Shown piece after piece: positions 9,560-59,011 of a stretch of DNA of 64,000 nt. The stretch is from positions 1 to 64,000 of IMG/VR virus record IMGVR_UViG_3300045988_155830, one strand, 5' to 3'. The first letter of the stretch is position 1, and each line of letters opens with the position of its first letter. The notes under the pieces are model-generated. The model did not search any database. It had not been told where the DNA came from and worked only from the letters and a program-made list of their open reading frames with translations. Made by a program: the position numbers and the translations under genes. This DNA comes from a virus.

Positions 9560-10168
9560 ATGAAAGTTAATATTACAAACAACATTTCTAATGTAAATGT
9601 TACAGTCAATCAGAATGATGATGGCTCACTTGCTATTCTTCTTTTTGAAAAGACAGGCAAAAAGCTCGGTGATTTTAAGCCCGGTGAAACTGTAAAACTC
9701 GGCAAACGTGAGTATATTATTCTTGGTCACGGAGCAGAAACAACGGCAGTTGTGACAAAAGATATTTCAAAGGAAATGGAGTTCGGCAAGAGCTGGGATT
9801 ATTCAAAAAGTTATGTTCGTGATTACTGTAATGGAGATTTCTATAATGAACTTGCAGAAGCAGTCGGCAAGAACAATATTGTTCCTCACAGAGTAAATCT
9901 CACCTGTGACGATGGCTCAAACAAAGGTGTAACTTGTAAGGATGATGTTTCTATTCTCACAACTGAAAATTATCGCCGTTATCGTGAATATCTCCCTGCA
10001 CTCGGCAAACCTTGTTGGACTGCAACAGGTGTTACTACACTTGATAAGGATTATGCTCGTAGCGTTTGCTGTGTCAATTCCTACGGCATTCTTTGCTGGC
10101 GTGATTGTGACTTTGCCTTTGGTGTGCGTCCGTTTTGTATCTTGAATTCTTCAATCCTTGTATCTTGA
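9560..10168 (+). CDS. DGR target protein 1, with a variable C-terminus in a DUF1566/C-type-lectin-like domain
   Basis: The C-terminal 27 codons coincide with VR1; the ending YARSVCCVNSYGILCWRDCDFAFGVRPF resembles a DUF1566/CLec-fold C-terminus. Confidence 0.6.
   Translation: MKVNITNNISNVNVTVNQNDDGSLAILLFEKTGKKLGDFKPGETVKLGKREYIILGHGAETTAVVTKDISKEMEFGKSWDYSKSYVRDYCNGDFYNELAEAVGKNNIVPHRVNLTCDDGSNKGVTCKDDVSILTTENYRRYREYLPALGKPCWTATGVTTLDKDYARSVCCVNSYGILCWRDCDFAFGVRPFCILNSSILVS
10055..10134 (+). repeat. DGR variable repeat VR1
   Basis: 80 bp aligned to TR 10570-10649 has 9 mismatches, every one at a TR adenine (9 of 16 TR adenines substituted, 0 of 64 non-A positions). Confidence 0.8.
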
Positions 10169-10179
10169 ATTGACTTCAA

Positions 10180-10548
10180 ATGAGTGAAGAAACTAAATTT
10201 CTAATAGGTGAAAAAGCGGAAATACTATATACAGAGGTTTTTGACTTGACAACAAATAGACAACATTATCCTGTTAAGTTTCGCAGACTTGCCGACAAAT
10301 TACAAGAATATACACTTGATATACATAGTGATATTATGGATGCGAATTCATATCCAACTGATACGTTAAACCATAAGCAGAAAAGGTATGACTTACAAAC
10401 AAGTGCAATAACAAAGTGCAATAAACTTGCTTCTTTAGTAAAATATAGTTTACACGCTCATTTAATAAGTTTTAGTACAAGCGAGAAGTTGATAGCGTTG
10501 ATACACGATGTAAAATTTATGGCTCTCGCTTGGAGAAAGCAAACTTAA
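10180..10548 (+). CDS. avd: DGR accessory variability determinant (Avd)
   Basis: 122 aa, sitting between target and TR; internal YPVKFRRL...IMDANS and C-terminal LIALIHDVKFMALAWRK match the bAvd four-helix-bundle pattern as I recall it. Confidence 0.6.
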   Translation: MSEETKFLIGEKAEILYTEVFDLTTNRQHYPVKFRRLADKLQEYTLDIHSDIMDANSYPTDTLNHKQKRYDLQTSAITKCNKLASLVKYSLHAHLISFSTSEKLIALIHDVKFMALAWRKQT

Positions 10549-10569
10549 TATTGTGGGTTATATGCTGTT

Positions 10570-10649
10570 GCTCGTAACGTTTGCTATGTCAATTCCAACG
10601 GCATTCTTAACTGGAATGATTGTGACTATGCCTATGGTGTGCGTCCGTT
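10570..10649 (+). repeat. DGR template repeat (TR), non-coding
   Basis: Near-identical to VR1 and VR2; rich in AAC/AAT/TAT codons in the VR frame; lies between avd and the RT; the overlapping ORFs 10553..10771 and 10639..10848 are spurious. Confidence 0.8.
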
Positions 10650-10763
10650 CTGGTGGATTAGTGAGGTTTATAGACCACTTTTGTGGTCACAAAGAGTACA
10701 CCACTACATCAAAAGAGCATATAACCCTTCTCATAGAAAGTGGGATAAATACAAAAGATTATT

Positions 10764-12176
10764 ATGGATGATTTTCAGACCCTCGTTGATTTTGAAAATC
10801 TCTATAATTCTTACCGAACTTCTATGCGAGGTAAAGGTAAGAAATTGAGTGCGGCGAAGTTCGATGTTATGGCACTTGAAAACCTTTATGTGATGAAGAA
10901 ACAACTCATTAACCATACATATAGGATTTCACCGTATTCAGAGTTTATTGTAACAGAGCCAAAGAAAAGAATAATCAAATCAGGTTCATTTCGAGATAAG
11001 GTATTACAACATTGCTTATGTGATTATGTATTATTGCCAACTATGAAAGACCGTTTTATAAAGGACAATTATGCAGGTCAAATTGGTAAAGGAACATTAT
11101 TCGGACTAAATCGTTTGTCAGAAAATTTACATAATTTTTATGACAAATATGGTAGTGATGGATATATACTAAAATGTGATATAACCAAATTCTTTTATAG
11201 TATCAACCACGATATTATGAAAGAGAAGATAAGAGAAAATTTTTCGGATGAAGATATTCAATGGATTTGTGATAGTTTTATAGATAGTGTTGATGGAGAT
11301 GGGCTACCTCTTGGAAATCAAAGCAGTCAAGTATTTGCCCTGATATTCCTCAACGGACTTGACCATTATATTGTCGATGAGCTTGGATGTAAATATTATG
11401 GCAGATATATGGATGACTTTTATTTACTATCTAATGATAAAGAGTATCTAAAAGAATGTCTTATTAAAATCAAAGAGTATTTAGCTAACTTAAAATTAAC
11501 GCTTAATAACAAGACTGAAATTGTTTCTATGAGTAAAGGTATTAGATTTCTTGGTTTTCATACATATTTGACCGAGCAAGGTAATGTTATAAGAAAACTA
11601 AATGGAGATAACAAAAGACAAGTTAAAAAGCGTTTAAGAAAGTACACAAAGTTAGTAGTACAAGGAAGAATGAAACGAGAAAAGTTCAATGAGATTTACT
11701 GTTCTTGGCGGAATCACGCATCTCACGGTAACTGTTTCAAGTTGATTTATGGAATGGATTTGTTTGTGGAAAATTTATTTAATGAAGAAAAACCTGAAAT
11801 AAGGGTTATTATTGCCGGTAGTAGAGACTTTAATAACTACGAACTATTGGAAAAGCACCTTAATAAATTCGTCAAAGAACACCCTAATAATAAGATAACT
11901 ATTATAAGCGGTGCTGCTCGTGGTGCAGACCAACTCGGAGAAAGATATGCCAGAGAAAAGTGCATATTATTAAAGAGGTTTTCGGCAAATTGGGAACAAT
12001 TCGGTAAAAGGGCAGGTTATATTAGAAACATTCAAATGCTCGACTATATAGATGCATCTACCTGCGATTCATATGTGTTTGCATTTTGGGATGGAAAGAG
12101 TAAAGGAACAAAACAAATGATTGATAGTGCTAAAAAACGAAATATACCGTATCAAATTGTAGCATTTCAATCTTAA
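10764..12176 (+). CDS. DGR reverse transcriptase with an extra C-terminal SLOG/DprA-like domain
   Basis: YMDD motif; PLGNQSSQVFALIFLNGLD matches the DGR-specific [LI]GxxxSQ motif; C-terminal IISGAARGADQLGE resembles the Rossmann-like SLOG/DprA fold. Confidence 0.85.
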   Translation: MDDFQTLVDFENLYNSYRTSMRGKGKKLSAAKFDVMALENLYVMKKQLINHTYRISPYSEFIVTEPKKRIIKSGSFRDKVLQHCLCDYVLLPTMKDRFIKDNYAGQIGKGTLFGLNRLSENLHNFYDKYGSDGYILKCDITKFFYSINHDIMKEKIRENFSDEDIQWICDSFIDSVDGDGLPLGNQSSQVFALIFLNGLDHYIVDELGCKYYGRYMDDFYLLSNDKEYLKECLIKIKEYLANLKLTLNNKTEIVSMSKGIRFLGFHTYLTEQGNVIRKLNGDNKRQVKKRLRKYTKLVVQGRMKREKFNEIYCSWRNHASHGNCFKLIYGMDLFVENLFNEEKPEIRVIIAGSRDFNNYELLEKHLNKFVKEHPNNKITIISGAARGADQLGERYAREKCILLKRFSANWEQFGKRAGYIRNIQMLDYIDASTCDSYVFAFWDGKSKGTKQMIDSAKKRNIPYQIVAFQS

Positions 12177-14422: not shown

Positions 14423-14497
14423 GCGAATATAGTGTAAAGGTTAGCACGCAAGTTTTCCAAACTTGAAGTGAGAGTTCGATTCTCTTTATTCGCTCCA
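14423..14497 (+). tRNA. tRNA-Gly (anticodon TCC), CCA encoded
   Basis: Acceptor gcgaata/tattcgc; anticodon stem caagt/acttg with loop tttccaa; T-arm gagagttcgattctc. Confidence 0.75.
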
Positions 14498-14502
14498 TAT
14501 AT

Positions 14503-14578
14503 TGGGGTGTTGCCAAGCGGTAAGGCACAGGACTTTGACTCCTGCATTTCGTTGGTTCGAGTCCAACCACCCCAGCCA
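14503..14578 (+). tRNA. tRNA-Gln (anticodon TTG), CCA encoded
   Basis: Acceptor tggggtg/cacccca; D-arm gccaagcggtaaggc; anticodon stem cagga/tcctg with loop ctttgac; T-arm gttggttcgagtccaac. Confidence 0.8.
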
Positions 14579-14887
14579 ATAATAGGCAGACAGGGTTTGC
14601 AAATAACAGCCTGGAATTAAATCTGTCGGAAGTCCGAAAAATTTGTATGCCTTTAAATCTATTAAAATGTTGTTTAAAGAGTATCGATGTTTACTTCGGT
14701 ATTCGTTAATATAGGCTTGGGCGGTAGGCATAGCGAAGTACAAGATAAATAGAGCCGCCATATAAACAGAAAGCAATTTAATTTTTTTACATAAAAATTG
14801 TGAGTAACGGCTGATTTGGCAGCCGAAGTGTGAGACATATATATTGTACTCATAAAAAACTATGTAGGTTAGTGGATAATATTTGAG

Positions 14888-15188
14888 GTTTTGGAACTGT
14901 ATTAAATTACATAGTTACCAAACGTATTGGCTATTAGTCAAATCAGTAACACGGTTTTGGAACTGTATTAAATTACATAGTTACCAAACGGTAAGCATAT
15001 GTACCCTGATTTACAACATTGTTTTGGAACTGTATTAAATTACATAGTTACCAAACACACATATAAACATAAATATATGTATGAAAGTTTTGGAACTGTA
15101 TTAAATTACATAGTTACCAAACAACCAGGGGACCTTATAGAATATGTAAAAGGTTTTGGAACTGTATTAAATTATATAGTTACCAAAA
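14888..15188 (+). CRISPR. CRISPR array: 5 x 36-bp repeat GTTTTGGAACTGTATTAAATTACATAGTTACCAAAC with 4 spacers (30-31 bp)
   Basis: Repeats at 14888, 14954, 15021, 15087 and 15153; repeats 1-4 are identical, and the gene-proximal repeat 5 carries 2 substitutions; the repeat is an imperfect palindrome; an AT-rich leader lies upstream. Confidence 0.9.
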
Positions 15189-15206
15189 ATACGAAGGAAA
15201 GTTAAA

Positions 15207-16553
15207 ATGACAAACACATATATAATTGCAAGAAAAATTCAACTGATACCAGTAGGAAAGAAGGAAGAAGTTAATCGAGTTTATACATATATTAAGGATG
15301 GTATAAAATCACAAAATATGGCAATGAACCAGTATATGAGTGCTTTATATACTTCAACTATTATGGAAATGACAAAAGATGATAGAAAAGAATTAAGCAG
15401 ACTATTTGGTAGAATTAGTACAAGCAAATTAGGAAGTGCTTATGATAAAACAATAGAGTTTGCAAAGGGGCTACCTATGGGTGGTGCAATTCAGCAAAAA
15501 GTCAAAAAAGATTTCGATAATGCAATGAAAAAAGGACTTAAATACGGCAAACTATCTTTACCATCATATCGTGATAGCAATCCTCTTTTGGTACACGTTG
15601 ATTATGTTAGACTTCGTTCTACGAATCCACATTTGGATAACGGCTTATATCACAACTATAGTAGCCACGAAGAATTTTTAAATCACTTATATAACGAAAA
15701 ACTTGAATTGTTTATTAAGTTCGCAAACAAAATTACATTCAAACTTGTTTTAGGCAATCCACGAAAATCAGCAGAAATCAGAAGTGTTTTCAAAAATATT
15801 TTTGAGGATTATTATCACATAAAAGGAAGCTCCATTGAACTTGACGGAACGAAAATTATCTTAAATATGTCGATTGAAATTCCGAAAAAGAAAGTTGTTC
15901 TTGACGAAAATGTTGTTGTTGGCGTGGATTTAGGAATCGCAATTCCTGCCGTATGTGCCTTGAATACCAATGACTATGTAAGAAAAAGCATAGGTTCACG
16001 AGATGATTTTTTGAGAGTAAGAACACAGATTAAATCTCAAAGGGACAGGCTTAAAAGGAAGTTGAAATATACAAGGGGCGGTCACGGCAGAGCGAAGAAA
16101 ATGCAGGCTATGGATAGGTTTACTGATTATGAGAAAAATTGGGTACAAACCTACAACCACAAAGTTAGCAAAGATGTCGTTGATTTTGCGTTGAAAAACA
16201 AGGCTAAATATATAAATCTCGAATGTTTAGACGGTTTCAGTAAGGATGATAAAAAGAAAAATTACTTATTAGCGAACTGGTCTTATTACCAGTTGCAACA
16301 ATACATAAAATACAAAGCCGAAAAATATGGAATTGTGGTTAGATTTGTAAATCCCGCTTATACCTCTCAAACCTGTAACTGTTGTGGTAATTTAGAAGAA
16401 GGACAAAGAGTTAAGCAATCAGAATTTATCTGTAAAAATCCAGAGTGTAAAAATTTTGGGAAGAAAATCAATGCTGATTTCAATGCGGCTCGCAACATCT
16501 CAATGTCAACAGACTTTGTTGAGAAAGAAGAAGAAAAAGAAAGAATTACATAA
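15207..16553 (+). CDS. compact type V effector (TnpB/Cas12f-like RuvC nuclease, 448 aa)
   Basis: RuvC-I VGVDLGIAIPAV; RuvC-II YINLECLDG; zinc finger CNCCGN...CKNPECKNFG; RuvC-III INADFNAARNI; ATG 19 nt after the last repeat with RBS GAAGGAAAG; no tnpA nearby. Confidence 0.75.
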   Translation: MTNTYIIARKIQLIPVGKKEEVNRVYTYIKDGIKSQNMAMNQYMSALYTSTIMEMTKDDRKELSRLFGRISTSKLGSAYDKTIEFAKGLPMGGAIQQKVKKDFDNAMKKGLKYGKLSLPSYRDSNPLLVHVDYVRLRSTNPHLDNGLYHNYSSHEEFLNHLYNEKLELFIKFANKITFKLVLGNPRKSAEIRSVFKNIFEDYYHIKGSSIELDGTKIILNMSIEIPKKKVVLDENVVVGVDLGIAIPAVCALNTNDYVRKSIGSRDDFLRVRTQIKSQRDRLKRKLKYTRGGHGRAKKMQAMDRFTDYEKNWVQTYNHKVSKDVVDFALKNKAKYINLECLDGFSKDDKKKNYLLANWSYYQLQQYIKYKAEKYGIVVRFVNPAYTSQTCNCCGNLEEGQRVKQSEFICKNPECKNFGKKINADFNAARNISMSTDFVEKEEEKERIT

Positions 16554-16567
16554 AGCAGCATAAATTT

Positions 16568-16643
16568 GTGGTTGTTGGTGTAACGGTTAGCACGCTTGTT
16601 TGTGGCACAAGTAGAGTGGGTTCAATTCCCACACTTCCACCCA
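16568..16643 (+). tRNA. tRNA-His (anticodon GTG) with encoded G-1, discriminator C and CCA
   Basis: Anticodon stem cttgt/acaag with loop ttgtggc; T-arm gtgggttcaattcccac; extra 5' G opposite discriminator C; the acceptor has two U-U mismatches, so confidence is moderate. Confidence 0.5.
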
Positions 16644-16651
16644 ATATATAT

Positions 16652-16727
16652 GTGCCAGTAGCTCAATCGGTAGAGCAATCGACTTTTAATCGGTAGGTCG
16701 GAGGTTCGATTCCTCTCTGGCACACCA
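16652..16727 (+). tRNA. tRNA-Lys (anticodon TTT), CCA encoded
   Basis: Acceptor gtgccag/ctggcac; D-arm gctcaatcggtagagc; anticodon loop cttttaa; T-arm ggaggttcgattcctct. Confidence 0.8.
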
Positions 16728-16732
16728 TTGAT

Positions 16733-16904
16733 GGCTGAAAATACTCATCCTTCTAAATCTTTTGCCTGTTAAGCAGGAGGTTGTCGGTTCAAGTCCGGCA
16801 CTGCCCCCGTGGGTAGTTAGCTCAATCGGATAGAGCGCCTACAAGAATAGAGTATAAAATTTCCATCAAATTTCCCTTAACGGCTATATTGAAACTTCCT
16901 TCTA
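16733..16904 (+). repeat. two copies (A and H) of the GGCTG-N8-TCATCCTTCTA motif with tRNA fragments (T-arm gtcggttcaagtccggc, then D-arm gctcaatcggatagagc)
   Basis: Motif A at 16733-16755 and motif H at 16882-16904; between them a T-arm followed by a D-arm without a canonical tRNA fold. Confidence 0.5.
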
Positions 16905-16971
16905 TTAAAGAAATTGGGTTCTAAATAGTTTCAATGATTACCGACAAATTAAAACAAAGGAGATTATTACA

Positions 16972-19218
16972 ATGAAGAATTTCAAATTAACAGAACTTGA
17001 TAAGATTTTGCTACGCCGTAAGCATTCAGTGATGTTTGAACCTGCTAATATGGCTTATGAGCAGAGCAAGACAGAAAAAGCACTCGTTGTTTCCGGCTTG
17101 AAAAATGTTCAGGCTCTTGGATTTACATTTTCAAAGGAACTTATTGAAAAAGCATTTCATTTTACAAGAGATGAGTTTACTGCTTTCTATGGTTTCCTTA
17201 TCCCTGCACTTAAAGAACTTGTTGGTGCGGATGTTGCATATAATCCAATGTACCCGAACTTTCCACAGCAGGTTGCAGAAGCAAGTGACATTGAGTTATT
17301 CATCAATGCAATCGTTCATTACTGGTCATTTGGCACATTGATTCCCGAATACGAAAAAAATGAGCGTTTACCGCTTATTGATGACAATAAAATGGCTCTT
17401 TTATCAGTAGGAAGTCACGATGATTTGATGACTATTTTCACAAATCTTGTTGAGAGCAAGACATCAATCTCGGAGCAGGACAAAGAGGACATTGAAACTA
17501 TCATTCTTGCTTGTCCTGATTATACTACATATTTTTCTGATACAATCCCTCTTAAAGAGAATGTTGCGTTCGTTGGAAAACTCATTATTGAAAAAGCACC
17601 AATCAAAAGCGCCGATTCAATAAGCAAATACTTCAAGACCGCAACGGATGTTTTACGACTTGTAACAGCACTTTCCGATGGCGACATTAGCCTTGCTTCA
17701 AAAACCAAGTACCGAAATCTTCGTAGGGTTGAACGCCGTATGATTATGGACTTGCTTACTGGCTGTGGTAACATAACAGAGGATTTATTCCGTTATCAGT
17801 ATGAATGGATTAGAGTTGCAGAAATTCTTCATCCGTTTGAATATAAAAAATCAAAGTATAGCAATGTCAACGCTGCATTCAATACTTTAAGAAACGAGAA
17901 AAAGCCTCTTATGTTTGCAGGAAAGGTTCAGGCAGCAATTACCGCAAAAGATATGCGTGAAGCTGCCACCTTGTTAAAAGCAAGACCCGGAGAGTTCGCA
18001 AGGAAACTTGACAAACTTATTCGTGATGCAGATAATCCGAATTATATTGTCAACTGTTTTAAGGAAGTTGCAACAGAAATCTCAACTCCTGTACTCCTTC
18101 AGGTAAGACAGCATTTCATAGGAAGAATGGAGAATGATAATCAGCCTGTAAGAGTATTCTTTCCTAAAGGAAACCTTGCAAAAGCTATGGTTATCAGAAA
18201 TGAACTTCCCAAAATCAATAGAAATGTATGTAAAAATGTTGCAAGGATTTGCCGTGAGGCTTTAATTGAACAGTACAAGGAAAAAGATTTTCTCGGAAAG
18301 GTTTATATTGATGAGGATTTCAAAAATTACCTTGTTCCGTTTAGTCAGAGAAGTGCAAGTAAGGCTGTTAAGACCATTGTTCGTGGTAGTAAGTTGCCTA
18401 TTAAGAAAGATGCTACGACTGTTCGTGGTTTTATTTGGTGGACTAATACTGATAACACGAGAAATGGCTGGGGTGAAGATAGGGTTGATATTGACCTTTC
18501 TGCAACCATTTATGATGAAAATTGGCAGTATGTTGACCGTGTATCATACACACAACTTCGCTCTGCAAAATATAGAGCATATCATTCGGGCGATATTACC
18601 AATGGCGGAAATGTTAATGGTGATGGCGTAGCAGAGTTCATTGATGTAGAAATTGATGCAGTTGCTAAAAACGCTGGTAGATACATTGCATTTCAGGTTT
18701 ATAGTTTTACACGACAGCATTTTTCTACGCTTCCTAATTGCCGTTTTGGATGGATGGAAAGAGAAGATGTAAACAGCGGTGAAATATTTGAGCCGAAAAC
18801 GGTTGGAATGAAAATTGACTTAACTGCTGACAGCACTGTTGCTATACCCGTTATATTCGATTGCGTTGAGCGTAAATTCATTTGGTGTGATATGAACCTT
18901 CAGAATGCAAGTTCGAGGTTTTATGGAAATAATCTTGAAAGTAATTTACACGGTGTAACCGCAACTTGCTATGGCTTAACACATCTTAATAAGGCAAATA
19001 TTTATGACCTCATAATGATGAACGCTGTTGCAAGAGGTAGTATTGTCACAGATAGAAATGAAGCAGACATCATTTTCAGTAATGATACAACAGTACCTTA
19101 TGAAATTGTAAATGAGCTTGACGAGGTTACGGGTACTACAAAACCTGTTATAAAGGAGAAGCCAGAAGTTCCGATTATCACGGCTTTCGATACCGATGAA
19201 TTATTTGCCTTGTTATAA
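16972..19218 (+). CDS. large protein (748 aa) with a TerD-like domain
   Basis: Region DIDLSATIYDENWQYVDRVSYTQLRS...YHSGDITNGGNVNGDGVAEFIDVEIDAV..RYIAFQVYSF matches the TerD consensus (HSGDn.tG.g.GDdE.i.vdL...rivf.v.iy); the N-terminal roughly 450 aa are unassigned. Confidence 0.5.
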   Translation: MKNFKLTELDKILLRRKHSVMFEPANMAYEQSKTEKALVVSGLKNVQALGFTFSKELIEKAFHFTRDEFTAFYGFLIPALKELVGADVAYNPMYPNFPQQVAEASDIELFINAIVHYWSFGTLIPEYEKNERLPLIDDNKMALLSVGSHDDLMTIFTNLVESKTSISEQDKEDIETIILACPDYTTYFSDTIPLKENVAFVGKLIIEKAPIKSADSISKYFKTATDVLRLVTALSDGDISLASKTKYRNLRRVERRMIMDLLTGCGNITEDLFRYQYEWIRVAEILHPFEYKKSKYSNVNAAFNTLRNEKKPLMFAGKVQAAITAKDMREAATLLKARPGEFARKLDKLIRDADNPNYIVNCFKEVATEISTPVLLQVRQHFIGRMENDNQPVRVFFPKGNLAKAMVIRNELPKINRNVCKNVARICREALIEQYKEKDFLGKVYIDEDFKNYLVPFSQRSASKAVKTIVRGSKLPIKKDATTVRGFIWWTNTDNTRNGWGEDRVDIDLSATIYDENWQYVDRVSYTQLRSAKYRAYHSGDITNGGNVNGDGVAEFIDVEIDAVAKNAGRYIAFQVYSFTRQHFSTLPNCRFGWMEREDVNSGEIFEPKTVGMKIDLTADSTVAIPVIFDCVERKFIWCDMNLQNASSRFYGNNLESNLHGVTATCYGLTHLNKANIYDLIMMNAVARGSIVTDRNEADIIFSNDTTVPYEIVNELDEVTGTTKPVIKEKPEVPIITAFDTDELFALL

Positions 19219-19292
19219 TTTATGAGGTGAATATTATAGTTAAGGTATGGAACAAACGGAAGGCTATATTAGTGAAATAAAATGAAATTATT

Positions 19293-19995
19293 GTGGCTGT
19301 GGACTTTCTTCCTTCTAAAAGAAAATAATTTCGATGGTTTAGCCATCTACATAATGATGATAAGATAGAAAGTCCGATTTCCACTATTCATAATTTGTGG
19401 CTGTAATGCTCATCCTTCTACATAATATCAAGAACTGCAAATTCTTCTAAAAAGAGTATTAAATTCCCACACCTCTTTCTAAATATTATGTGGCTATTGT
19501 TTTTTCATCCTTCTATGCCAATAGGCACTTGATTTGGGATTAAGATTTTAGAGAAACAAATTTCCACAATACAAAATATGCGGCTGACCAACATCATCCT
19601 TCTATATATCAGGGAACTATGTGTCGTGGGTTCGACTCCCACCATTCCATCTTCGATGGGATGTCGCACAGTTGGTAGTGCAATAGTATTATTAGATGTT
19701 AAAATTACCGCATCAAATAAATTTCAAATAATTAGAAATAATATTGAGAAAAACACTTGACAAATAGTAAAATGTGTGCTATAATATCTAATGTAAGTTA
19801 AATAAACATTCGGCTGTTGAGGTTCATCCTTCTACCTATTAGGAATAGACTTTTAATCTATATATTATAAGAACCTCAAATTTCTGAATATAAGCTGGCT
19901 GAAAGGTTTCATCCTTCTTCAAATACATAATACCAAGCTGCTAATCGTGGGTTCGATTCCCACCTATCTACATTGCTGGTAGTCGCCAAGAGGTA
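19293..19995 (+). repeat. array of about 90-110-nt degenerate tRNA-like units, each beginning with the conserved motif GGCTG-N8-(T)CATCCTTCTA (copies B-G)
   Basis: Motif copies at 19295-19317, 19399-19420, 19492-19515, 19582-19604, 19812-19834 and 19897-19919; units E and G contain a perfect T-arm (gtgggttcgactcccac / gtgggttcgattcccac) followed by a D-arm (gcacagttggtagtgc / gccaagaggtaaggc); unit F contains a Lys-type anticodon arm (atagacttttaatctat); none folds as a complete tRNA. Confidence 0.55.
19757..19785 (+). promoter_or_regulatory. sigma-70-type promoter TTGACA-17-TATAAT inside the tRNA-like array, preceded by the conserved intergenic motif
   Basis: TTGACA at 19757-19762 and TATAAT at 19780-19785. 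Confidence 0.55.
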
Positions 19996-20226
19996 AGGCA
20001 GCAGCCCTAAAATCAAAGAGACCGAAATTTCCAGCATCAAGAAACATTATTGAGCAAAACAAAATACGATAACTACAAAACCTAATCAGAATTTTTCACC
20101 TCTTTCTCTCCTTTCTATGTTTTTGCGTGTTTCATAAGATAAATTAAGAGTATTTTTTTTGTCTGATTAAAACCTGTTTAACAGGGGGCAAAGTTAGATA
20201 GATAAAGGTCTTTGCCATATACATAT

Positions 20227-20304
20227 GCGCCGATAGTTCAGTTGGAACAGAATGCTTGACTACGAATCAAGAGGTCGCAGGTTCGAGTCCTGCTCGGCGT
20301 GCCA
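20227..20304 (+). tRNA. tRNA-Arg (anticodon ACG), CCA encoded
   Basis: Acceptor gcgccga/tcggcgt; anticodon stem cttga/tcaag with loop ctacgaa; T-arm gcaggttcgagtcctgc. Confidence 0.75.
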
Positions 20305-20322
20305 AGAGTGAAAATTTAATAT

Positions 20323-20409
20323 GCTGGTATGATGGAATTGGCAGACATAGCGGACTTAAAATCCGCTGGCTGCAAAGCCGTGTCGGTTCGAGTCCGACTA
20401 CCAGCACCA
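20323..20409 (+). tRNA. tRNA-Leu (anticodon TAA), type II, CCA encoded
   Basis: Acceptor gctggta/taccagc; anticodon stem gcgga/tccgc with loop cttaaaa; long variable arm; T-arm tcggttcgagtccga. Confidence 0.8.
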
Positions 20410-20519
20410 CTAATTATTTAGGAAAGCAGTGATAATAAATTAAACAAGTTCCATTATATGAATTATTAAATGATGAACAATTTATTGATTGCTTTAATAA
20501 ATCTAATAGTTACACAGAA

Positions 20520-20810
20520 TTGTATCTTAATATTGGCTATTCATCTGCCAAACCAGTTAAGCCATCGAAAATAATTGGTATTAAAGAAAGAATCAAAGAA
20601 CTTGGTTTAGATGAGCATAAATTAAGTAATCGTAATTATTATAAGAAAAGTAAATATATAAACAAACATCTAAATTTTGTTTTAGACCACATTGACGGAA
20701 ACGCTTCAAACAATCGAGAAAATAATCTCCGATTGATATGTCCAAATTGTGATTCTCAATTAGACACATATAAATCTAAAAATAAAAATTCAGCAAGACA
20801 ATATAGATGA
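20520..20810 (+). CDS. HNH homing-endonuclease-like protein (short)
   Basis: HIDGNASNNRENNLRLICPNCD matches the HNH motif; located in the tRNA cluster. Confidence 0.5.
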   Translation: MYLNIGYSSAKPVKPSKIIGIKERIKELGLDEHKLSNRNYYKKSKYINKHLNFVLDHIDGNASNNRENNLRLICPNCDSQLDTYKSKNKNSARQYR

Positions 20811-20816
20811 TAATAT

Positions 20817-20906
20817 GGCGAGTTGACAGAGTATGGCTTATTGTGCTTAACTTGAAATTAAGCGGCGGTAACACGCCCGTGGGTTCAAATCCTACACTCG
20901 CCGCCA
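20817..20906 (+). tRNA. tRNA-Ser (anticodon TGA), type II, CCA encoded
   Basis: Acceptor ggcgagt/actcgcc; anticodon stem cttaa/ttaag with loop cttgaaa; long variable arm; T-arm gtgggttcaaatcctac. Confidence 0.75.
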
Positions 20907-21520
20907 ACATCCTGTTGGCGTAACAGGTTGGTTGAGAACCGACTCTCACGACCAATACCAAAAGTATAAAAGCCTCTTAACAATGCTCACTATTATGAAA
21001 AAGTTGGTTATTAAAATATTGCTGTCGCTGCGAATATAGGTGGGGTAAACATACTTTCATATGCAAATCGCAAAATCCTCATTAGCGAACTCCGTGGAAG
21101 CTGCTCCTATGGCTGATGGCTTCTGACAGCAACTATATAAATGAGAAGAAAGAAACTCTCTGTTTAGGGTGAAATGATATATCTCTAATCGGTGCTGACA
21201 CCTATCAGACATTTATATGGCGTTACGCCCTCTACCGATACGATAACTCGGGGTAACACAATGGTGAGGGAATTATAAATACGAGAGTGCAGGAATAACG
21301 AGTAGTCATTCAAAGGAATTGCAGTAAATGATTGTGCATTTATAACGAACTGCAAGAGTGAATGTATGAACAATGAATGACGGTGACTAAATATCAGTTA
21401 GTAATGGCAATATGAGGCGAGGATGTGGTGCGGCTATGCAAACCAACTCACAGTGTTTCGGCATAGAGTAGTTGAACTGTTGCTAACTGGTATTGAAATC
21501 ACTTTAGAAAGGAGAGAACA
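20907..21520 (+). ncRNA. candidate large structured ncRNA (about 600 nt, ORF-free) directly 3' of tRNA-Ser
   Basis: No + strand ORF; GC content visibly higher than the flanks; numerous local hairpins; this placement (after tRNAs in a phage) is typical of ROOL/GOLLD-class RNAs, but that is not verified. Confidence 0.35.
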
Positions 21521-21522
21521 AA

Positions 21523-21792
21523 ATGTTTTATAATGTAATAATCGGAAGTCCGATTGTAGAACCTAAAACATTGATTGCTCTTGATGATATAGATTGGGAA
21601 ACTAATGAAAAAGAAAAGACATTATTTACCGATACAAGATTTCTTCCGGCAATTATGAAAGAAGCCGGAATAGTGAAATCAATCGGAGAAGTTAGAAAGA
21701 ATAAGCCCGAACTTGTTTTTACTCTTAATGAACTTGATTGTTTATGGATTAAATGGGGCAAGAAGTTTCTCTATATTGTAGTCGGTAATTGA
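21523..21792 (+). CDS. hypothetical protein (89 aa)
   Basis: GGAGAG RBS upstream of the ATG. Confidence 0.45.
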   Translation: MFYNVIIGSPIVEPKTLIALDDIDWETNEKEKTLFTDTRFLPAIMKEAGIVKSIGEVRKNKPELVFTLNELDCLWIKWGKKFLYIVVGN

Positions 21793-22018
21793 TTGGAAAT
21801 CTATTATAAATAAAGATAAATTTGCGGAATTGATAAATGAAATATTTATAAGCGGCGTTGCTTATGGTATGGCTTATCAAACAAAAGTGATGCAGAGAAA
21901 TATCATATTATTGATGAAAAACAGATAAAATTTTATTTAGTGATTTTTAGTTAATGATTTGGCTATTTCTTTTTATCCAAGTGCGATTATTCCATCTGCT
22001 TTGAAAAATAAATGAATT

Positions 22019-22101
22019 GCTGGTGTGGTGGAATGGCAGACACGGCAGACTCAAAATCTGTTGCTATAAGCGTGCGAGTTCAAATCTCGCCACCAGCACC
22101 A
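22019..22101 (+). tRNA. tRNA-Leu (anticodon CAA), type II, CCA encoded
   Basis: Acceptor gctggtg/caccagc; anticodon stem gcaga/tctgt with loop ctcaaaa; T-arm gcgagttcaaatctcgc. Confidence 0.75.
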
Positions 22102-22103
22102 AA

Positions 22104-22197
22104 GGTTCATTGGTCAAGCGGTTAAGACACTGGCGGAGGTATGTAGTGTAAATCAGGCACACTGCCGGAGACATAGGTTCAAATCCTATATGAGCCA
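22104..22197 (+). tRNA. aberrant tRNA-like gene (94 nt) with an approximately 29-nt insertion or 9-nt loop in the anticodon region; no CCA
   Basis: Acceptor ggttcat/atgagcc; D-arm gtcaagcggttaagac; T-arm ataggttcaaatcctat; the region between D- and T-arms is 44 nt with nested stems ctggc/gccgg and agtgt/acact. Confidence 0.4.
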
Positions 22198-22253
22198 TAG
22201 ATAATCCTATTTCGTTGTTAAGTGTGGCTGACACTTTCAAAAACAGCCAATAT

Positions 22254-22329
22254 AGCAGGATAGAGAAGTGGTTATCTCGTCAGCCTCATAAGCTGAAAAT
22301 CGTGGGTTCAAATCCCACTCCTGCAACCA
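22254..22329 (+). tRNA. tRNA-Met (anticodon CAT), CCA encoded
   Basis: D-arm gagaagtggttatctc; anticodon stem tcagc/gctga with loop ctcataa; T-arm gtgggttcaaatcccac; a 1-72 A-A mismatch in the acceptor. Confidence 0.65.
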
Positions 22330-44440: not shown

Positions 44441-44728
44441 ATGACTGAAATAAAGTTACCTTATACACATCTTCTTTATGTTAGAAAATATTCTATCATT
44501 ACCAATGATTATGAACTTTTTATCGTTGGTGTGAATACTAAAGATATTTTCCATACTATGGGAGAATATTTGTATCGAAGCGAAACACAAGTCAAGAGAA
44601 TAGACAAAGTAGAATGCACACAAGAAAAACTTGACTTTTGGGCAAAAGAAGGATATGAGATTTATGAATTTAAGGACAAGTACATTGTTAAAAATAAAAG
44701 GAAAGAAGAAAATGCAGATTACCATTGA
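44441..44728 (+). CDS. hypothetical protein
   Basis: ATG 44441 with AAAGGA RBS. Confidence 0.4.
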   Translation: MTEIKLPYTHLLYVRKYSIITNDYELFIVGVNTKDIFHTMGEYLYRSETQVKRIDKVECTQEKLDFWAKEGYEIYEFKDKYIVKNKRKEENADYH

Positions 44729-45350
44729 TAGTGCAAATATAAAAATTGAAAATGGAAAGGTTACTATTGACCTTAATCCAGAGCAACTTGCAGCATTAAC
44801 TTGTTCTAATAAAGTTGAATTATCAACACTAAAATCAGGAGATGAATTTAAGCTCGGAGATGAAGTATTCATTGTAATGGAACATACTGATAAAGGAACA
44901 AGAGTTATTTCAAAAGAGTTTGCTTATAAAGAAGTAAAATTCGGCGATAATTCAAATTGGAATACATCTCCTATTCGTAGAATGCTCAATAATGAGTATT
45001 TCGAGAAGATTGCAGCTATCATCGGCGGAGAAAACAATATTATCTCTATGGATAGAGACCTCACTTCTCTCGATGGTTTGGATGATTACGGAACTTGCAC
45101 CGATAAGGTAAGTCTTTTAACCGCTATGGAATATGCAAAGTATCATAAGATTCTTGGCTTGAAATCCAACTATCCTGATTGGTGGTGGCTTATTACTCCT
45201 GCATCCACTCCGAGTAATAACTACGCTCGTCGCGTTTGCTATGTCGGTTCCAGCGGCATTCTTGACCAGAATGGCTGTGACTGTGCCTTTGGTGTGCGCC
45301 CGTTTTTAAATCTTGAATCTTCTATCTCGGTTCTTTTGAATAAGGATTAA
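44712..45350 (+). CDS. DGR target protein 2 (paralog of target 1) with a C-terminal VR
   Basis: The C-terminus YARRVCYVGSSGILDQNGCDCAFGVRPF is homologous to target 1; the nucleotide sequence aligns to TR. Confidence 0.55.
   Translation: MQITIDSANIKIENGKVTIDLNPEQLAALTCSNKVELSTLKSGDEFKLGDEVFIVMEHTDKGTRVISKEFAYKEVKFGDNSNWNTSPIRRMLNNEYFEKIAAIIGGENNIISMDRDLTSLDGLDDYGTCTDKVSLLTAMEYAKYHKILGLKSNYPDWWWLITPASTPSNNYARRVCYVGSSGILDQNGCDCAFGVRPFLNLESSISVLLNKD
45225..45304 (+). repeat. DGR variable repeat VR2 (remote)
   Basis: 80 bp versus TR: 13 mismatches, 9 at TR adenines and 4 at non-A positions; the 3' flank shares atcttgaat..cttc with the VR1 flank. Confidence 0.6.
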
Positions 45351-45842: not shown

Positions 45843-46454
45843 TTAATAACTACCTTTTTGTTTATAAAGTTTAACAATATCATTTTCCCATGCAGTTTTG
45901 CGATGGTATTGTTTCCATTTTAAGTATTTTTTATAACGATAAAGAGAGGCTTCTGCTGATAATCCAAAAACATTTTGAACATCTAAAGGCGATTGAACGC
46001 TTAGATATTCATAAAGAGGAAACGGAGATAATATTGTTGCGGCAAAATAATCAGCTTCATTTTCAAATTCAGAATTTTCTGTGCACATAAAACTATTCTC
46101 CGATAATTTTGAATAAGCAGATGCAGAGTGGTGTTTGCAAAGAATATGCCCTATTTCGTGACTACAAGTCCATAATTGCCGACCAAAATTGTTATTGCCT
46201 TGTGTTGACTGATTGCAAAGAATTAAATATCTATCCTGTGAAATATCATAATGAGTGCAACCAGACCCGCTTTCGCACATTTGGATAACATCATTTATTG
46301 AACAATTATTTATTTTAGCGAATTTCTGATATGACATATATCTACAATTCGGAATGAGTTTAATTACTTCTTGAATATCTAAAGGAAATGTGATTTGTGG
46401 CAACATAGAATATATTTTCAACACCAAATTGTTTATATAAATATATCTAATCAT
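45843..46454 (-). CDS. ImmA/IrrE-family zinc metallopeptidase
   Basis: HEIGHILCKHH contains HExxH. Confidence 0.7.
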   Translation of the reverse strand: MIRYIYINNLVLKIYSMLPQITFPLDIQEVIKLIPNCRYMSYQKFAKINNCSINDVIQMCESGSGCTHYDISQDRYLILCNQSTQGNNNFGRQLWTCSHEIGHILCKHHSASAYSKLSENSFMCTENSEFENEADYFAATILSPFPLYEYLSVQSPLDVQNVFGLSAEASLYRYKKYLKWKQYHRKTAWENDIVKLYKQKGSY

Positions 46455-46807
46455 TAGGTGTTATTATCCTCCTCAAAGGCGTAATCGAAACCAACTTTAA
46501 GCATTCGCATCATTCGTTCTCTATCTTGTTGAGACATTTTTTGTCTTGCTCTTTGAAAAGATATAATATCATCATCTCCGAGTAATTTAGAAGCAGAACC
46601 TTTTATATCTGTTCTACCGAGTAAATAATCGACTGACACATCGAAGTATGTGGCAACCTTGATTATTTTATCAACGGATGGAGAATAAGTTGATTTCCAT
46701 TTTTGAATTGAAGATAATCCTACTCCTAAATCACTTTCAAGTTTGTTGACAGAAATACCTTTTTCAATACATAATTCTTTGATTCTCTGATATAATACAG
46801 TTTCCAT
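46454..46807 (-). CDS. XRE-family helix-turn-helix transcriptional regulator (CI/Cro-like)
   Basis: N-terminal QRIKELCIEKGISVNKLESDLGVGLSSIQKW is a typical HTH_3 domain. Confidence 0.8.
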   Translation of the reverse strand: METVLYQRIKELCIEKGISVNKLESDLGVGLSSIQKWKSTYSPSVDKIIKVATYFDVSVDYLLGRTDIKGSASKLLGDDDIISFQRARQKMSQQDRERMMRMLKVGFDYAFEEDNNT

Positions 46808-55448: not shown

Positions 55449-55655
55449 ATGTTTAAATGTAAAAATTGTGGAACTGAAATGGAGAGAGTTTATTCTTTTG
55501 AAAATGAGAATGAAAGTTATCAGCAGATGAAGTGTCCTAACTGTGGCGGTGCTACAAAAAAGAGACCTATCGTGTATGACGATAACGGCAATCTCGTAAC
55601 CAATTTCAAGAAGAACAATAAAAAGAAAAAGCAGAGAAAGGCTAAAGAAGAATGA
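55449..55655 (+). CDS. hypothetical zinc-ribbon protein
   Basis: CKNCG...CPNCGG. Confidence 0.45.
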   Translation: MFKCKNCGTEMERVYSFENENESYQQMKCPNCGGATKKRPIVYDDNGNLVTNFKKNNKKKKQRKAKEE

Positions 55656-58600
55656 TTATCAATGATAAGAGAGCATTAGCCTATATCGTAACCATTGATG
55701 AAATTAGACCTATTCCGAATTACGATAGGGTTGAACACGCTCGTACAAATGGATGGTGGTGTGTAACTCGTCTTAATGAATTAAAAGTTGGAGACAAAGC
55801 GGTTTATTTTGAAGTCGATAGCAAAGTGCCGGCAGATGATGAGAGATTTAGTTTCCTTGAGGCTAAACACTACAAGATTAAAACTCAAAAAATGTGTGGA
55901 GTTTTTTCACAAGGTTTGCTAATGCCAGTTACATTATTTCCTGAATTAGCGGATATGGAAGTCGGAACAGATGTTACTGATATTCTTAAAGTTACATATT
56001 CTGTCATTGAAGATAATACAAGAAAATCCAAAAATGGAGACCCTGATGCAAAATATAAGTCTATGGCACAGCGACATCAAAAGATTTTTAAGAAACCTAT
56101 TGTGCGAAAGATTATGAAACACAAGCTCGGCAGAAAGATTATGTTCCTTTTCTTTGGAAAAAAGAAAGATAAACCATTATCATTTCCGACACATTTCCCA
56201 TTTGTTCATAAGACAGATGAAGAAAGGTGTTTAATTGGCGATACAAAAGTCCAAACAAACAATGGTGTTTTAAAAATTGCCGACATAGTAAATAAAGAGT
56301 TGCCTGTTGAGGTTTTATCTTATAATGAGAAAACAAAAACAGTTGAATATAAACCGATTATTTCTTATCAAAAATTTGCGAAGAAAGAAGATGAAGATTT
56401 AATCGAAATAAAATATCCTTACAGATTTGGAAATCAAAAAACAAATACTATTCGTTGCACCCCAGACCATAAATTTTATAATGGTTCAACTTATGTACGA
56501 GCTGATGAAATTCATCAAGGTGATAAAATTTTTATTCACCATCATTGTTATGATGACTATGTTATTCAAGTTGTTTTTGGAATGCTACTTGGAGATTCTT
56601 CAATTTATTATGATAAGAGAAGTGGTAGTAATAATATCCGCATCCAAACCTCACAAGGCGAAAAACAATTAGATTACTTAAAAATGAAGCAATCGTTGTT
56701 TGGAGAACAATTCTTTAAGATTTCCAAATGTAAAAGCGGATATTGTGACAATGTGGTTTATAAAGGGTGTCTATCGGCTGATTACAATATTTCTAAAGCT
56801 GTATTAGAAAATTGTTTTATTAACAATAAGAAAACAATTACACCTACAATGTTAAAATATATTACGCCACTTTCTCTCGCAATTTGGTATATGGATGATG
56901 GCAACCTTAAACATAAATATGATAGTTGTAGTCCATCAATTATTATTTCTACTTGTGGTTTTTCAAAAAATGAAAATGAATTGCTAATTGATATGTTGAG
57001 AAATAATTTTGGAATTGAGTGCAACTTGCGTAGAGAGAAAAATAAATATTGGAGCATTTATATTACAACTGAAGGAACAAAGAAGTTCCTAAAACTCATT
57101 ACTCAATATATCCCACCGTGTATGAGGTATAAAACATTACAAGAATATGAGAATGATTATTTTTCTATCCAAGATTTAAGATATAAAAAGCAGGAACGAT
57201 TGATGCCCATACCAGTAATATCAATTAAAAAATATAAGGGTATTAGACGATATAAAACTGTTTTTGATATTGAAGTTAAAGATAATCATAATTTCTTTGC
57301 GAACAATATATTAACTCATAATTGTGAGAATATGCCGTGGGTTCTTGGATATGAAAGACCGTTAATCGTGACTGAAAAACTTGATGGTTGTCTTGATAGA
57401 GATGTTAGCGTTGTTACAGATGCTGGTTCGTTTAAGATTTCAGAAATTGTAAACAAAAAACTTCCTGTGAATGTTCTCACTTATAATTCTAATTTGAATA
57501 TTTGCGAATACAAACCGATTGTAGATTATCACAAATGGGAAAGAGTATCGGATATGTATGACATAGTAGTATCTCAACAAGGTTATAAGTGTGAAAACAA
57601 ACCGAAACATATTCGCTGTACAAGTGAACACAGCTTTTATGTTGGTAACAATCAATACATAAAAGCTAAAGACTTAAAAAATACTGATATAATTTATCAT
57701 AGATATGAAATTATTGATACATTAGTAAAAGAAATCTTATTGGGAATTTTGCTTGGAGATGCCTCATTATCTTCTAAATACGGAGTAATAAATGGTGGCG
57801 TTGATTTTAGTCATTCTATTAAACAGAAAGATTATTTTAATGAGATAAAAAGATTGTTGGGTCAAAATATTTCAATAGATACAACAAAATCGGGATATAA
57901 TTCTGAAATGTTAAGAGGTCATTTTTATACTAATTCAGAATTTAAGGAGTTGTCAAATAAAATATGTGTAAGAAATCACAAAAAATATGTAACACAAGAA
58001 TGGGCAAATGAATTAACTCCCATATCTCTTGCATTTTGGTATATGGACGATGGAACTATCTCAAATGCTGATTCAAAGTTGTCAAGACCTACAATTAGTA
58101 TTGCTACAAATGGTTTTAGTTATGAGGAATGCGAAAACTTAAAAAGAGCATTATCAACAAAGTTTAATATTGAATCAGACATAAAAATGGGAGAATCATA
58201 TAAAGGGAATACACTCTATATGAATACAATGAATACGGCTAAATTTGCTTCCTTGATTGCTCCATATATTTGCGATGGTATGAAGTACAAGTTGCCAAAA
58301 TCAATGAGAAATATTAAGTATTGTCTCGGAGATTATATAGCGAGCAATGGTAGCTCAATTACTCCCACGAAAATTATTTCTGTAAGAAAAATTGACAATT
58401 ATAACCGCAAATATGTTTTTGATTTAACAGTCAAAGATAACCATAACTATTTTGCAAACGGTATTTTAACACACAATACCTCATCTACATATATTCTTGA
58501 AAGAAAAGGCAAGAAAAAATTCGAGTTTTATGTTCTATCAAGAAATGTTCGTCAAAAGACACCTGACCAAAAGTGCTACCACGATAAGAATATTTACTGG

Positions 58601-59011
58601 GATATGGCTATTAAAAACAATATTGAGCAACGCCTAAAAGAATATCTTATTGCAAATCCAGACTTGAAATATGTCTGCATACAAGGGGAGTCTGTTGGTA
58701 GTGTTCAAGGAAATCCACTTAAATTAAACGAAGATGAACTCTATGTATTTAACTTCATTCGTTCCGATGTGGGTAGATTATCATCTATTGACGGAAAAGA
58801 AATTATTGAGAGTTGGGGTATGAAATTTGTCCCAATATTGGAAACAGAATATTATGTACCAACTGATATGGAAACATTCAAAGAGTATGCAACTGCAAAA
58901 TCTGTTGTAAATCCGAATGTATTGCGTGAGGGCATTGTGCTTCGTGACCCGACCAATGATTTTAGCTTTAAGAATGTTTCCCGTGAGTATTTATTAAAAC
59001 ACGGAGGTTAA
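55652..59011 (+). CDS. RNA/DNA-ligase-family nucleotidyltransferase (KxDG) interrupted by two LAGLIDADG inteins; the extein is about 391 aa
   Basis: Extein motifs TEKLDG|TSST (motif I), IQGESVG (motif IV) and FSFK (motif V); two insertions with the intein hallmarks Cys1 and ..THN followed by C or T. Confidence 0.65.
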   Translation: MIINDKRALAYIVTIDEIRPIPNYDRVEHARTNGWWCVTRLNELKVGDKAVYFEVDSKVPADDERFSFLEAKHYKIKTQKMCGVFSQGLLMPVTLFPELADMEVGTDVTDILKVTYSVIEDNTRKSKNGDPDAKYKSMAQRHQKIFKKPIVRKIMKHKLGRKIMFLFFGKKKDKPLSFPTHFPFVHKTDEERCLIGDTKVQTNNGVLKIADIVNKELPVEVLSYNEKTKTVEYKPIISYQKFAKKEDEDLIEIKYPYRFGNQKTNTIRCTPDHKFYNGSTYVRADEIHQGDKIFIHHHCYDDYVIQVVFGMLLGDSSIYYDKRSGSNNIRIQTSQGEKQLDYLKMKQSLFGEQFFKISKCKSGYCDNVVYKGCLSADYNISKAVLENCFINNKKTITPTMLKYITPLSLAIWYMDDGNLKHKYDSCSPSIIISTCGFSKNENELLIDMLRNNFGIECNLRREKNKYWSIYITTEGTKKFLKLITQYIPPCMRYKTLQEYENDYFSIQDLRYKKQERLMPIPVISIKKYKGIRRYKTVFDIEVKDNHNFFANNILTHNCENMPWVLGYERPLIVTEKLDGCLDRDVSVVTDAGSFKISEIVNKKLPVNVLTYNSNLNICEYKPIVDYHKWERVSDMYDIVVSQQGYKCENKPKHIRCTSEHSFYVGNNQYIKAKDLKNTDIIYHRYEIIDTLVKEILLGILLGDASLSSKYGVINGGVDFSHSIKQKDYFNEIKRLLGQNISIDTTKSGYNSEMLRGHFYTNSEFKELSNKICVRNHKKYVTQEWANELTPISLAFWYMDDGTISNADSKLSRPTISIATNGFSYEECENLKRALSTKFNIESDIKMGESYKGNTLYMNTMNTAKFASLIAPYICDGMKYKLPKSMRNIKYCLGDYIASNGSSITPTKIISVRKIDNYNRKYVFDLTVKDNHNYFANGILTHNTSSTYILERKGKKKFEFYVLSRNVRQKTPDQKCYHDKNIYWDMAIKNNIEQRLKEYLIANPDLKYVCIQGESVGSVQGNPLKLNEDELYVFNFIRSDVGRLSSIDGKEIIESWGMKFVPILETEYYVPTDMETFKEYATAKSVVNPNVLREGIVLRDPTNDFSFKNVSREYLLKHGG
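56228..57322 (+). mobile_element. intein 1 (365 aa, LAGLIDADG homing-endonuclease type)
   Basis: Begins CLIGDT; internal LLGDSSIYY and AIWYMDDGN; ends NILTHN with C+1 (CENMP). Confidence 0.75.
57389..58477 (+). mobile_element. intein 2 (363 aa, LAGLIDADG type), inserted directly after the KxDG glycine
   Basis: Begins CLDRDV; internal LLGDASL and AFWYMDDGT; ends GILTHN with T+1. Confidence 0.75.

Follow-up and report, generated by a model that had tools for sequence, protein, structure and literature searches.

The viral DNA analysed here carries a DGR cassette and, some 35 kb away from it, a gene whose 3′ end resembles the template (TR) of that cassette and departs from it at adenines as well as at other bases. 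The question raised by this locus is whether the one TR services two targets in trans, or whether the remote repeat is a decaying former target that has accumulated background changes; both readings had been offered in an earlier note made from the sequence alone. The stretch analysed, here called the window, comprises 64,000 nt (64 kb), about half of the ~120–165 kb genome of a human-gut phage of Clostridia; MAG bins and the name of an NCBI protein point to a gut Clostridia or Ruminococcus species as its probable host. A nucleotide search of a phage genome collection with both loci gave no match.

The DGR Cassette

The window contains a single DGR cassette, with all elements on the plus strand: a target gene (T1) with its variable repeat (VR1), an Avd-like gene, the TR, a structured spacer, and a reverse transcriptase (RT) fused to a SLOG domain; from its sequence, the cassette looks intact. 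T1 (9560–10168) encodes a 202-residue DUF6273 protein, the adjacent DGR target, which is assigned by its match to Pfam DUF6273 (23.5 bits, exactly the gathering cut-off), its match to phrog_9958, and its paralogy to the remote target T2. VR1 (10055–10134) differs from the TR at nine positions, 9/9 of which are TR adenines (P = 4.9e-8), and carries T51 and T75 as does the current TR. The Avd-like accessory protein (122 residues, pI 8.6; gene at 10180–10548) matches phrog_3206, “Avd protein of DGR” (E = 1.8e-12); a Pfam search with it yielded no match at E ≤ 0.01. The TR (10570–10649), the only one in the window, lies between the Avd-like gene and the RT gene and has 16 adenines in its 80 nt, mostly in AAY/NAY codons.

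TR and RT are separated by 114 nt of spacer (10650–10763), which is conserved across 16 related cassettes, opens with the TR-specific, IMH*-like CTGGTGGATTAGTGAGG, and contains the inverted repeat GACCAC/GTGGTC. RNAalifold analysis of 16 related cassettes placed two hairpins in it (10673–10688 and ~10729–10745) and found nine base pairs with compensatory changes; in the hairpin at 10673–10688, there are 2–7 compensatory changes per pair across the 16 cassettes. The blocks ATCAAAAGAG and GGGATAAATACAAAAG are conserved in related cassettes, and ATCAAAAGAG and GGGATAAATACAAA are invariant. A covarying spacer of this kind is as would be expected of a functional DGR RNA. The RT itself (10764–12176; 470 residues) consists of an RVT_1 domain (E = 2.4e-18) and a C-terminal YAcAr/SLOG domain (DUF2493; E = 9.5e-18), and the motifs of the DGR clade, [LIV]GxxxSQ and YxDD, are present as LGNQSSQ at residue 183 and YMDD at residue 215. 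DGR membership is indicated by three features, i.e., an RT of the DGR clade, a TR/VR1 pair that differs at adenines only, and an Avd gene beside the TR. Mutagenic retrohoming is visible as a footprint only, namely, in the series of TR alleles copied into VR1 and in the hypervariability seen in the population.

A Second Target 34.6 kb from the Template

T2 (44712–45350, plus strand) encodes a 212-residue DUF6273 protein and is the non-adjacent second target of the DGR. Residues 78–203 match Pfam DUF6273 (E = 1.8e-8; 34.8 bits, the cut-off being 23.5), with the VR at the C-terminal end of the domain; DUF6273 is a C-lectin-like domain of DGR targets (PMC10743442, PMC11792537). Both T2 (E = 1.3e-42) and T1 match phrog_9958, and the observation in the earlier note that T2 ends with the same domain as T1 can be extended, as the two are DUF6273 paralogues over their full length (36% protein identity, E = 1e-33). 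T2 orthologues were found in every related phage contig examined. An AlphaFold2 model of T2, built on a 45-sequence alignment, had a mean pLDDT of 47, too low for the model to be of use, and a profile search of PDB sequences with T2 returned no match.

The 80-nt variable repeat of T2, VR2 (45225–45304, plus strand), shares the strand of the TR and lies downstream of it at a measured distance of 34.6 kb, where the earlier note had given 35 kb from TR and RT; 67 of its 80 bases are identical to the TR. Base-by-base comparison reproduced the coordinates and counts given before exactly: of 13 mismatches over 80 bp, nine are at TR adenines (hypergeometric P = 2.4e-5) and four elsewhere, the latter being T10612>C together with G10613>A (TGG>CAG), T10620>C (GAT>GGC), and T10644>C (CGT>CGC). 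BLASTN with the 3′ end of T2 found two other copies only within the window, at 10570–10649 (83.75% over 80 nt, E = 2e-19) and at 10052–10156, and a motif scan located the GC-rich core GGYGTNCGYCCG at three sites, in VR1, TR, and VR2; the window searches detected no other TR or RT near T2. When T1 and T2 are aligned by codons, their nucleotide identity is 80.2% within the VR but 47.8% in the rest of the gene; therefore, a common template must have been the source of the VR block, which mere conservation between paralogues does not explain.

Rewriting in Trans among Relatives

Scans of IMG/VR with T2 and RT alignments yielded eight contigs that carry one RT/TR and a T2 orthologue 12–35 kb away; in three of the contigs, this distance runs across the contig ends. 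Between TR and remote VR, these contigs have 7–15 mismatches at adenines and 0–1 at other bases, with four of the five non-adenine exceptions situated at the 5′ edge of the repeat. A ninth same-contig pair, on a 162.8 kb ENA contig whose RT falls into the window's 90% cluster, has 11 adenine mismatches and no others. When the TR of locus L065 is compared with VR2 of L066, two contigs that encode the same RT protein, 14 adenine mismatches and one non-adenine mismatch are seen. The rule of Wu et al. (2018) that, minor exceptions aside, only A-to-N differences occur between a TR and its target thus holds for the T2 orthologues in the nine same-contig pairs, whereas VR2 of the window has nine adenine and four other differences.

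In 120 T2 homologues (77–97% identical), entropy is 1.5–3.1 bits at codons holding a TR adenine, and the mean is 1.30 bits in the VR versus 0.26 elsewhere; columns 172 and 192 of the VR also vary, by lineage. The same is evident at close range: around T2, L066 and the window share 99.1% identity, and the 14 base differences within the T2 gene comprise 12 among the 80 VR bases, nine of which affect TR adenines, and two among the remaining 559. Taken at the level of such comparisons, the data show T2 to be a real, conserved, and non-adjacent DGR target, apparently rewritten in trans by the single TR. The suggestion that one TR serves two targets in trans is therefore borne out for this phage family and species by the nine adenine-only pairs and the hypervariability at TR-adenine codons.

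VR2 Carries the States of an Older Template

TR alleles were compared within the cluster of RTs of at least 90% identity. The allele C51/C75 is found in L071 and L065, T51/C75 in L067, L074, L075, and L076, and T51/T75 in the window; all more distant TRs examined have C51. At positions 51 and 75, every VR1 agrees with the TR of the genome that it comes from, and this includes VR1 of the window. VR2 of the window has C51 and C75, that is, the older TR allele which is still found in close relatives; hence, two of the four non-adenine mismatches are changes of the template and not of VR2. Compared with the TR of L065 instead of its own, VR2 of the window has nine adenine mismatches and two others, both in the CAG codon. 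The allele series shows that VR2 of the window was apparently last written from an earlier TR and was not rewritten through two TR changes, while VR1 was rewritten after both. The notion of a decayed former target with background changes is thus appropriate for the frozen allele of the window, but not for the two mismatches that arose in the TR, and the site itself, although stale, is not visibly decayed: it has the same 3′ flank as a freshly written VR2, and a sister copy of the allele was probably rewritten in part later on (see below).

The Q Allele

The other two non-adenine mismatches make up the CAG codon for Gln186 (45267–45269, plus strand), the marker of what is here called the Q allele (W186Q); the TR, VR1, and 112 of the 120 homologues have TGG (Trp) at this place. 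CAG combined with the same adenine-site states is present in at least five sequenced loci (the window, L001, L002, L054, and L055), L054 being the sole metagenome match of a CAG-specific pattern. These loci differ from one another by scattered point changes, also at non-adenine sites (positions 2, 4, 26, 66, and 78). According to cluster look-ups, protein variants matching the Q allele are on record for ~90 contigs (variants with 15, 8, 24, 5, 4, and 30 contigs, among others); they come from many samples, have extra substitutions at non-adenine sites, for example, S180Y and A192T, and their point mutations are mostly non-synonymous. One Q-allele genome (L002/L017) has lost its TR in a 1-kb deletion. 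A metagenome scan in which all adenine sites were freed did not find any TR carrying CAG.

Together, these variants show an allele that is widespread and, to judge from its base changes, frozen, with variation that looks like ordinary point mutation. A check of relatives for variation restricted to A sites, as had been proposed in the earlier note, thus turned out positive for the family but not for the Q allele of the window, which varies at non-adenine sites too. The CAG change could have arisen during a homing event and not after it. It is conceivable, though rather doubtful, that W186Q represents a “parked” specificity, fixed by selection or by a lower rate of homing at the remote site while sister genomes continue to diversify. 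Were this so, one DGR would service its targets at very different tempos, and the lag from TR to VR (zero steps for VR1, two for VR2) would be a natural clock for the homing rates of individual targets.

Probable Competence of the Remote Site

The sequence directly downstream of VR2, TTTAAATCTTGAATCTTCTATCTCGGTTCT (45305–45334, plus strand), constitutes, together with the GC-rich end of the VR (45291–45304), a candidate IMH-like recognition element. VR1 and VR2 share the terminal GGTGTGCGYCCGTT and, beyond it, a T-rich flank with TCTTGAAT and CTTCnATC, where the TR instead continues with CTGGTGGATTAGTGAGG; the resemblance of the two flanks that the earlier note had pointed out was confirmed, as the strings quoted there are present at both sites. 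The VR2 flank is identical in 30 of 30 positions between the window and the fresh VR2 of L066, and 80–97% conserved in the orthologues, in which the upstream 120 nt are 63–91% conserved. This conservation makes a role as IMH plausible, the flank being at the same time coding sequence. A search downstream of the VRs for a GC-rich hairpin like that of BPP-1 revealed no inverted repeat common to the flanks of VR1 and VR2.

The 8-mer ATCTTGAA occurs in both VR flanks (window 10139–10155 and 45310–45325) in different reading frames, ATC TTG AA. in T1 and.AT CTT GAA in T2, with the frame of the following TCTTC being the same again. This shift hints at a constraint at the DNA level; it may also be due to chance.

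Evidence for continued use of the site comes from loci that resemble Q-type copies rewritten at a later time. L068/L069 do not differ from L001 outside the VR (0/559), and they keep the L001 states at positions 1–27 as well as A78 and G83; positions 28–66 are rewritten, with TGG restored and position 51 showing the T of the newer TR allele. L069 is scaffold_10 of ena:ERZ28620317, and L070 has a comparable pattern. The simplest reading of these shared states is partial homing into a Q-type copy, biased toward the 3′ end of the VR. As a sister Q-allele copy seems to have been partly rewritten later, the intact-looking VR2 site of the window has probably stayed competent as well. Position 75 was copied from TR to VR1 in the window and position 78 was not overwritten in L068; thus, on one case each, the 3′ limit of transfer may lie within CCGTT.

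The strain of the window is 100% identical, VR1, TR, and VR2 included, in several human-gut metagenomes (four such contigs), so the consensus data do not show current activity at either VR; since all three elements are unchanged across samples, it may be the whole DGR, and not VR2 alone, that is quiescent. The four contigs were also considered as a measure of VR1 turnover but, being identical in VR1 too, are uninformative in this respect. Samples with exactly this strain are ERR414377, ERR414378, LIJU14-1, ERR14021391, and ERR12526742. In L066 VR2 and L074 VR1, which otherwise have adenine-only changes, T64>G is found just 5′ of A65 (TAT>GTT); its occurrence in different genes and genomes may reflect recurrent non-canonical misincorporation beside an adenine.

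Proposed Course of Events and Alternatives

We consider it highly probable that T2 is a trans target of the single DGR of the window, that VR2 is stale because it stems from an older TR, and that its site is probably competent. By analogy to BPP-1, the TR would be transcribed, RT and Avd would produce cDNA with random bases opposite the template adenines, and the cDNA would replace a VR whose end is marked by the shared GC-rich core and the VR-specific flank. The same TR could serve VR1 and VR2 over 34.6 kb because the cDNA complex is, as proposed here, diffusible. VR2 would last have been written from the C51/C75 allele of the TR, and TGG>CAG would then have been acquired, or written in, privately at VR2; the TR would have changed from C51 to T and later from C75 to T, with VR1 being rewritten after both changes and VR2 not.

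Alternatively, the present TR might fully service VR2, with the four non-adenine mismatches being errors of RT or integration in a recent round of homing. Such errors are suggested by the recurrent T64>G in two otherwise fresh VRs, and differences other than A-to-N are present in 23% of catalogued DGRs (PMC5758913); nevertheless, this reading is quite improbable, as C51 and C75 are precisely the older TR allele surviving in relatives, and nine other same-contig TR/VR2 pairs have only 0–1 non-adenine mismatches. Moreover, identical states at adenine and non-adenine positions recur across five or more independent loci and in many further contigs, and a set of states common to at least five loci must have been inherited, not newly made. 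A second TR (with CAG, C51, and C75) that services VR2 from outside the 64-kb window appears a little less credible still. The window does cover only about half of a 120–165 kb genome, and multiple DGRs occur in ~10% of the genomes that contain any (PMC5758913), but protein-pattern scans found one RT locus per related viral contig, all CAG copies share their adenine-site states, and the adenine-freed pattern matched a single metagenome contig which is a VR2 copy with the same adenine-site states and no TR-like copy.

The possibility that VR2 is a dead former target, drifting to decay after a defect in cis or the loss of DGR function, has more in its favour and is nonetheless unlikely. It would account for a Q allele frozen across many genomes, for substitutions in L055 that are concentrated in the VR (7/80 vs. 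10/559 in the remaining gene), for the lack of VR change in the window strain across samples, and for two close relatives, one of them with the Q allele (L002/L017), that have lost the Avd C-terminus, the TR, and the RT N-terminus. On the other hand, the cassette of the window is intact and its VR1 has kept up with the newest TR allele, T2 has an unbroken reading frame and the flank of VR2 is the same as that of a fresh VR2, and L068/L069 and L070 resemble Q-type copies that were rewritten later. That there is no DGR action at VR2 at all, and that its similarity to the TR merely reflects conservation of paralogous lectin-fold C-termini, can practically be dismissed: T1 and T2 are indeed paralogues and the similarity of their flanks lies within coding sequence, yet the rise in identity from 47.8 to 80.2% coincides exactly with the VR, the adenine bias (P = 2.4e-5) and the hypervariability at TR-adenine codons have no place in such a reading, and the orthologues in nine genomes track their own TRs at non-adenine sites (0–1 exceptions).

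Relation to Known DGRs

The cassette resembles the DGR of BPP-1 (mtd-avd-TR-brt) in the order of target/VR, Avd, TR, and RT, in adenine-specific mismatches, in a GC-rich end of the homology that is followed by VR-specific or TR-specific sequence, and in a structured spacer RNA downstream of the TR. It differs in having two targets, one of them 34.6 kb away; in that these are DUF6273 proteins of ~200 residues and not Mtd; in the absence of a GC-rich hairpin shared downstream of the VRs; and in the C-terminal YAcAr/SLOG domain of the RT. Non-adjacent targets up to 50 kb from the RT have been documented for phage-associated DGRs (Wu et al. 2018, PMC5758913), some of which likewise have one adjacent target and one elsewhere in the phage genome; they were assigned by A-to-N-only differences, a rule which VR2 of the window breaks at four positions, explained here by TR drift and one codon change. 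Gut phages with two DUF6273/C-lectin targets are known as well, namely, nd4/nd12 (Baykov et al. 2023, PMC10743442) and the Faecalibacterium prophages Lelie/CP11 (PMC11792537). As in the window, one TR diversifies two DUF6273 proteins of gut Clostridia phages there, and the VR is at the C-terminal end of DUF6273; unlike those systems, the targets of the window are small paralogues of each other instead of a tentaclin and a small protein, and they are 35 kb apart and not in one cassette. The DGRs of Treponema denticola and Legionella also have a single TR/RT acting in trans on several VRs; these DGRs are cellular and their targets can be as far off as megabases, whereas the present case is confined to one phage genome.

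Non-adenine differences between TR and VR are common in DGR catalogues, where they are usually left unexplained or taken for sloppy reverse transcription. For the window, relatives resolve them: two are due to template drift and two to a private codon change in an allele no longer rewritten. The known model of DGR function remains unchanged; the value of the case is a resolved history, in which template drift dates a stale allele and partial rewriting is likely. It thereby provides natural evidence for homing in trans over ~35 kb in a phage genome, for partial conversion tracts biased to the 3′ end of the VR, and for two targets that draw on one template yet differ in turnover.

The YAcAr/SLOG Domain and Losses of the Cassette

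The YAcAr/SLOG (DUF2493) part of the RT corresponds to 11802–12176 of the window (residues ~347–470) and has a weak DprA-like match besides. The fusion is present in ~35 of the top RT homologue clusters, and sister RTs of ~340 residues do without it; in the L065 relative, a 34-bp deletion separates the domain as its own ORF. The accessory classes that Wu et al. 2018 (PMC5758913) list for DGRs do not include YAcAr/SLOG, and a search of the papers available found none tying the domain to DGRs. It is not required for remote targeting, because RT-only relatives have adenine-only remote VRs too.

L016 and L017, close relatives from one metagenome, each have deletions of ~1 kb that remove the Avd C-terminus, the TR, and the RT N-terminus. 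At L016:2501, window positions 10317–11429 are missing, at L017:2499 positions 10328–11328 and 11530–11600; as the deletions differ, the DGR was lost independently within the phage species.

Other Genes of the Window

The gene at 42503–43702 matches phrog_1211, annotated as a PurZ-type synthetase. It was considered as PurZ and rejected, since it keeps Asp in GDEGKG, where all 147 phage PurZ have Ser; this adenylosuccinate synthetase homologue is therefore treated as PurA-like and, judged from this residue, is probably no marker of a 2-aminoadenine genome. Past one small opposite-strand ORF downstream of T2, the minus strand encodes an ImmA/IrrE-type metalloprotease and XRE-HTH pair (45843–46807), a module typical of lysogeny switches. 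Some contigs with T2 variants measure 0.4–0.9 Mb; the phage may be temperate or else mis-binned.

Ten tRNA genes (Gly, Gln, His, Lys, Arg, two Leu, Ser, Pro, and Met) are scattered over ~8 kb (14423–22329). Beyond these, the window encodes an RNA-repair-like set consisting of a nucleotidyltransferase, a CCA-adding enzyme, and an RNA ligase. An ORF of 1119 residues at 55652–59011 has an RNA-ligase N-terminus and a LAGLIDADG homing-endonuclease segment (residues 692–883), and may be an intein-containing gene.
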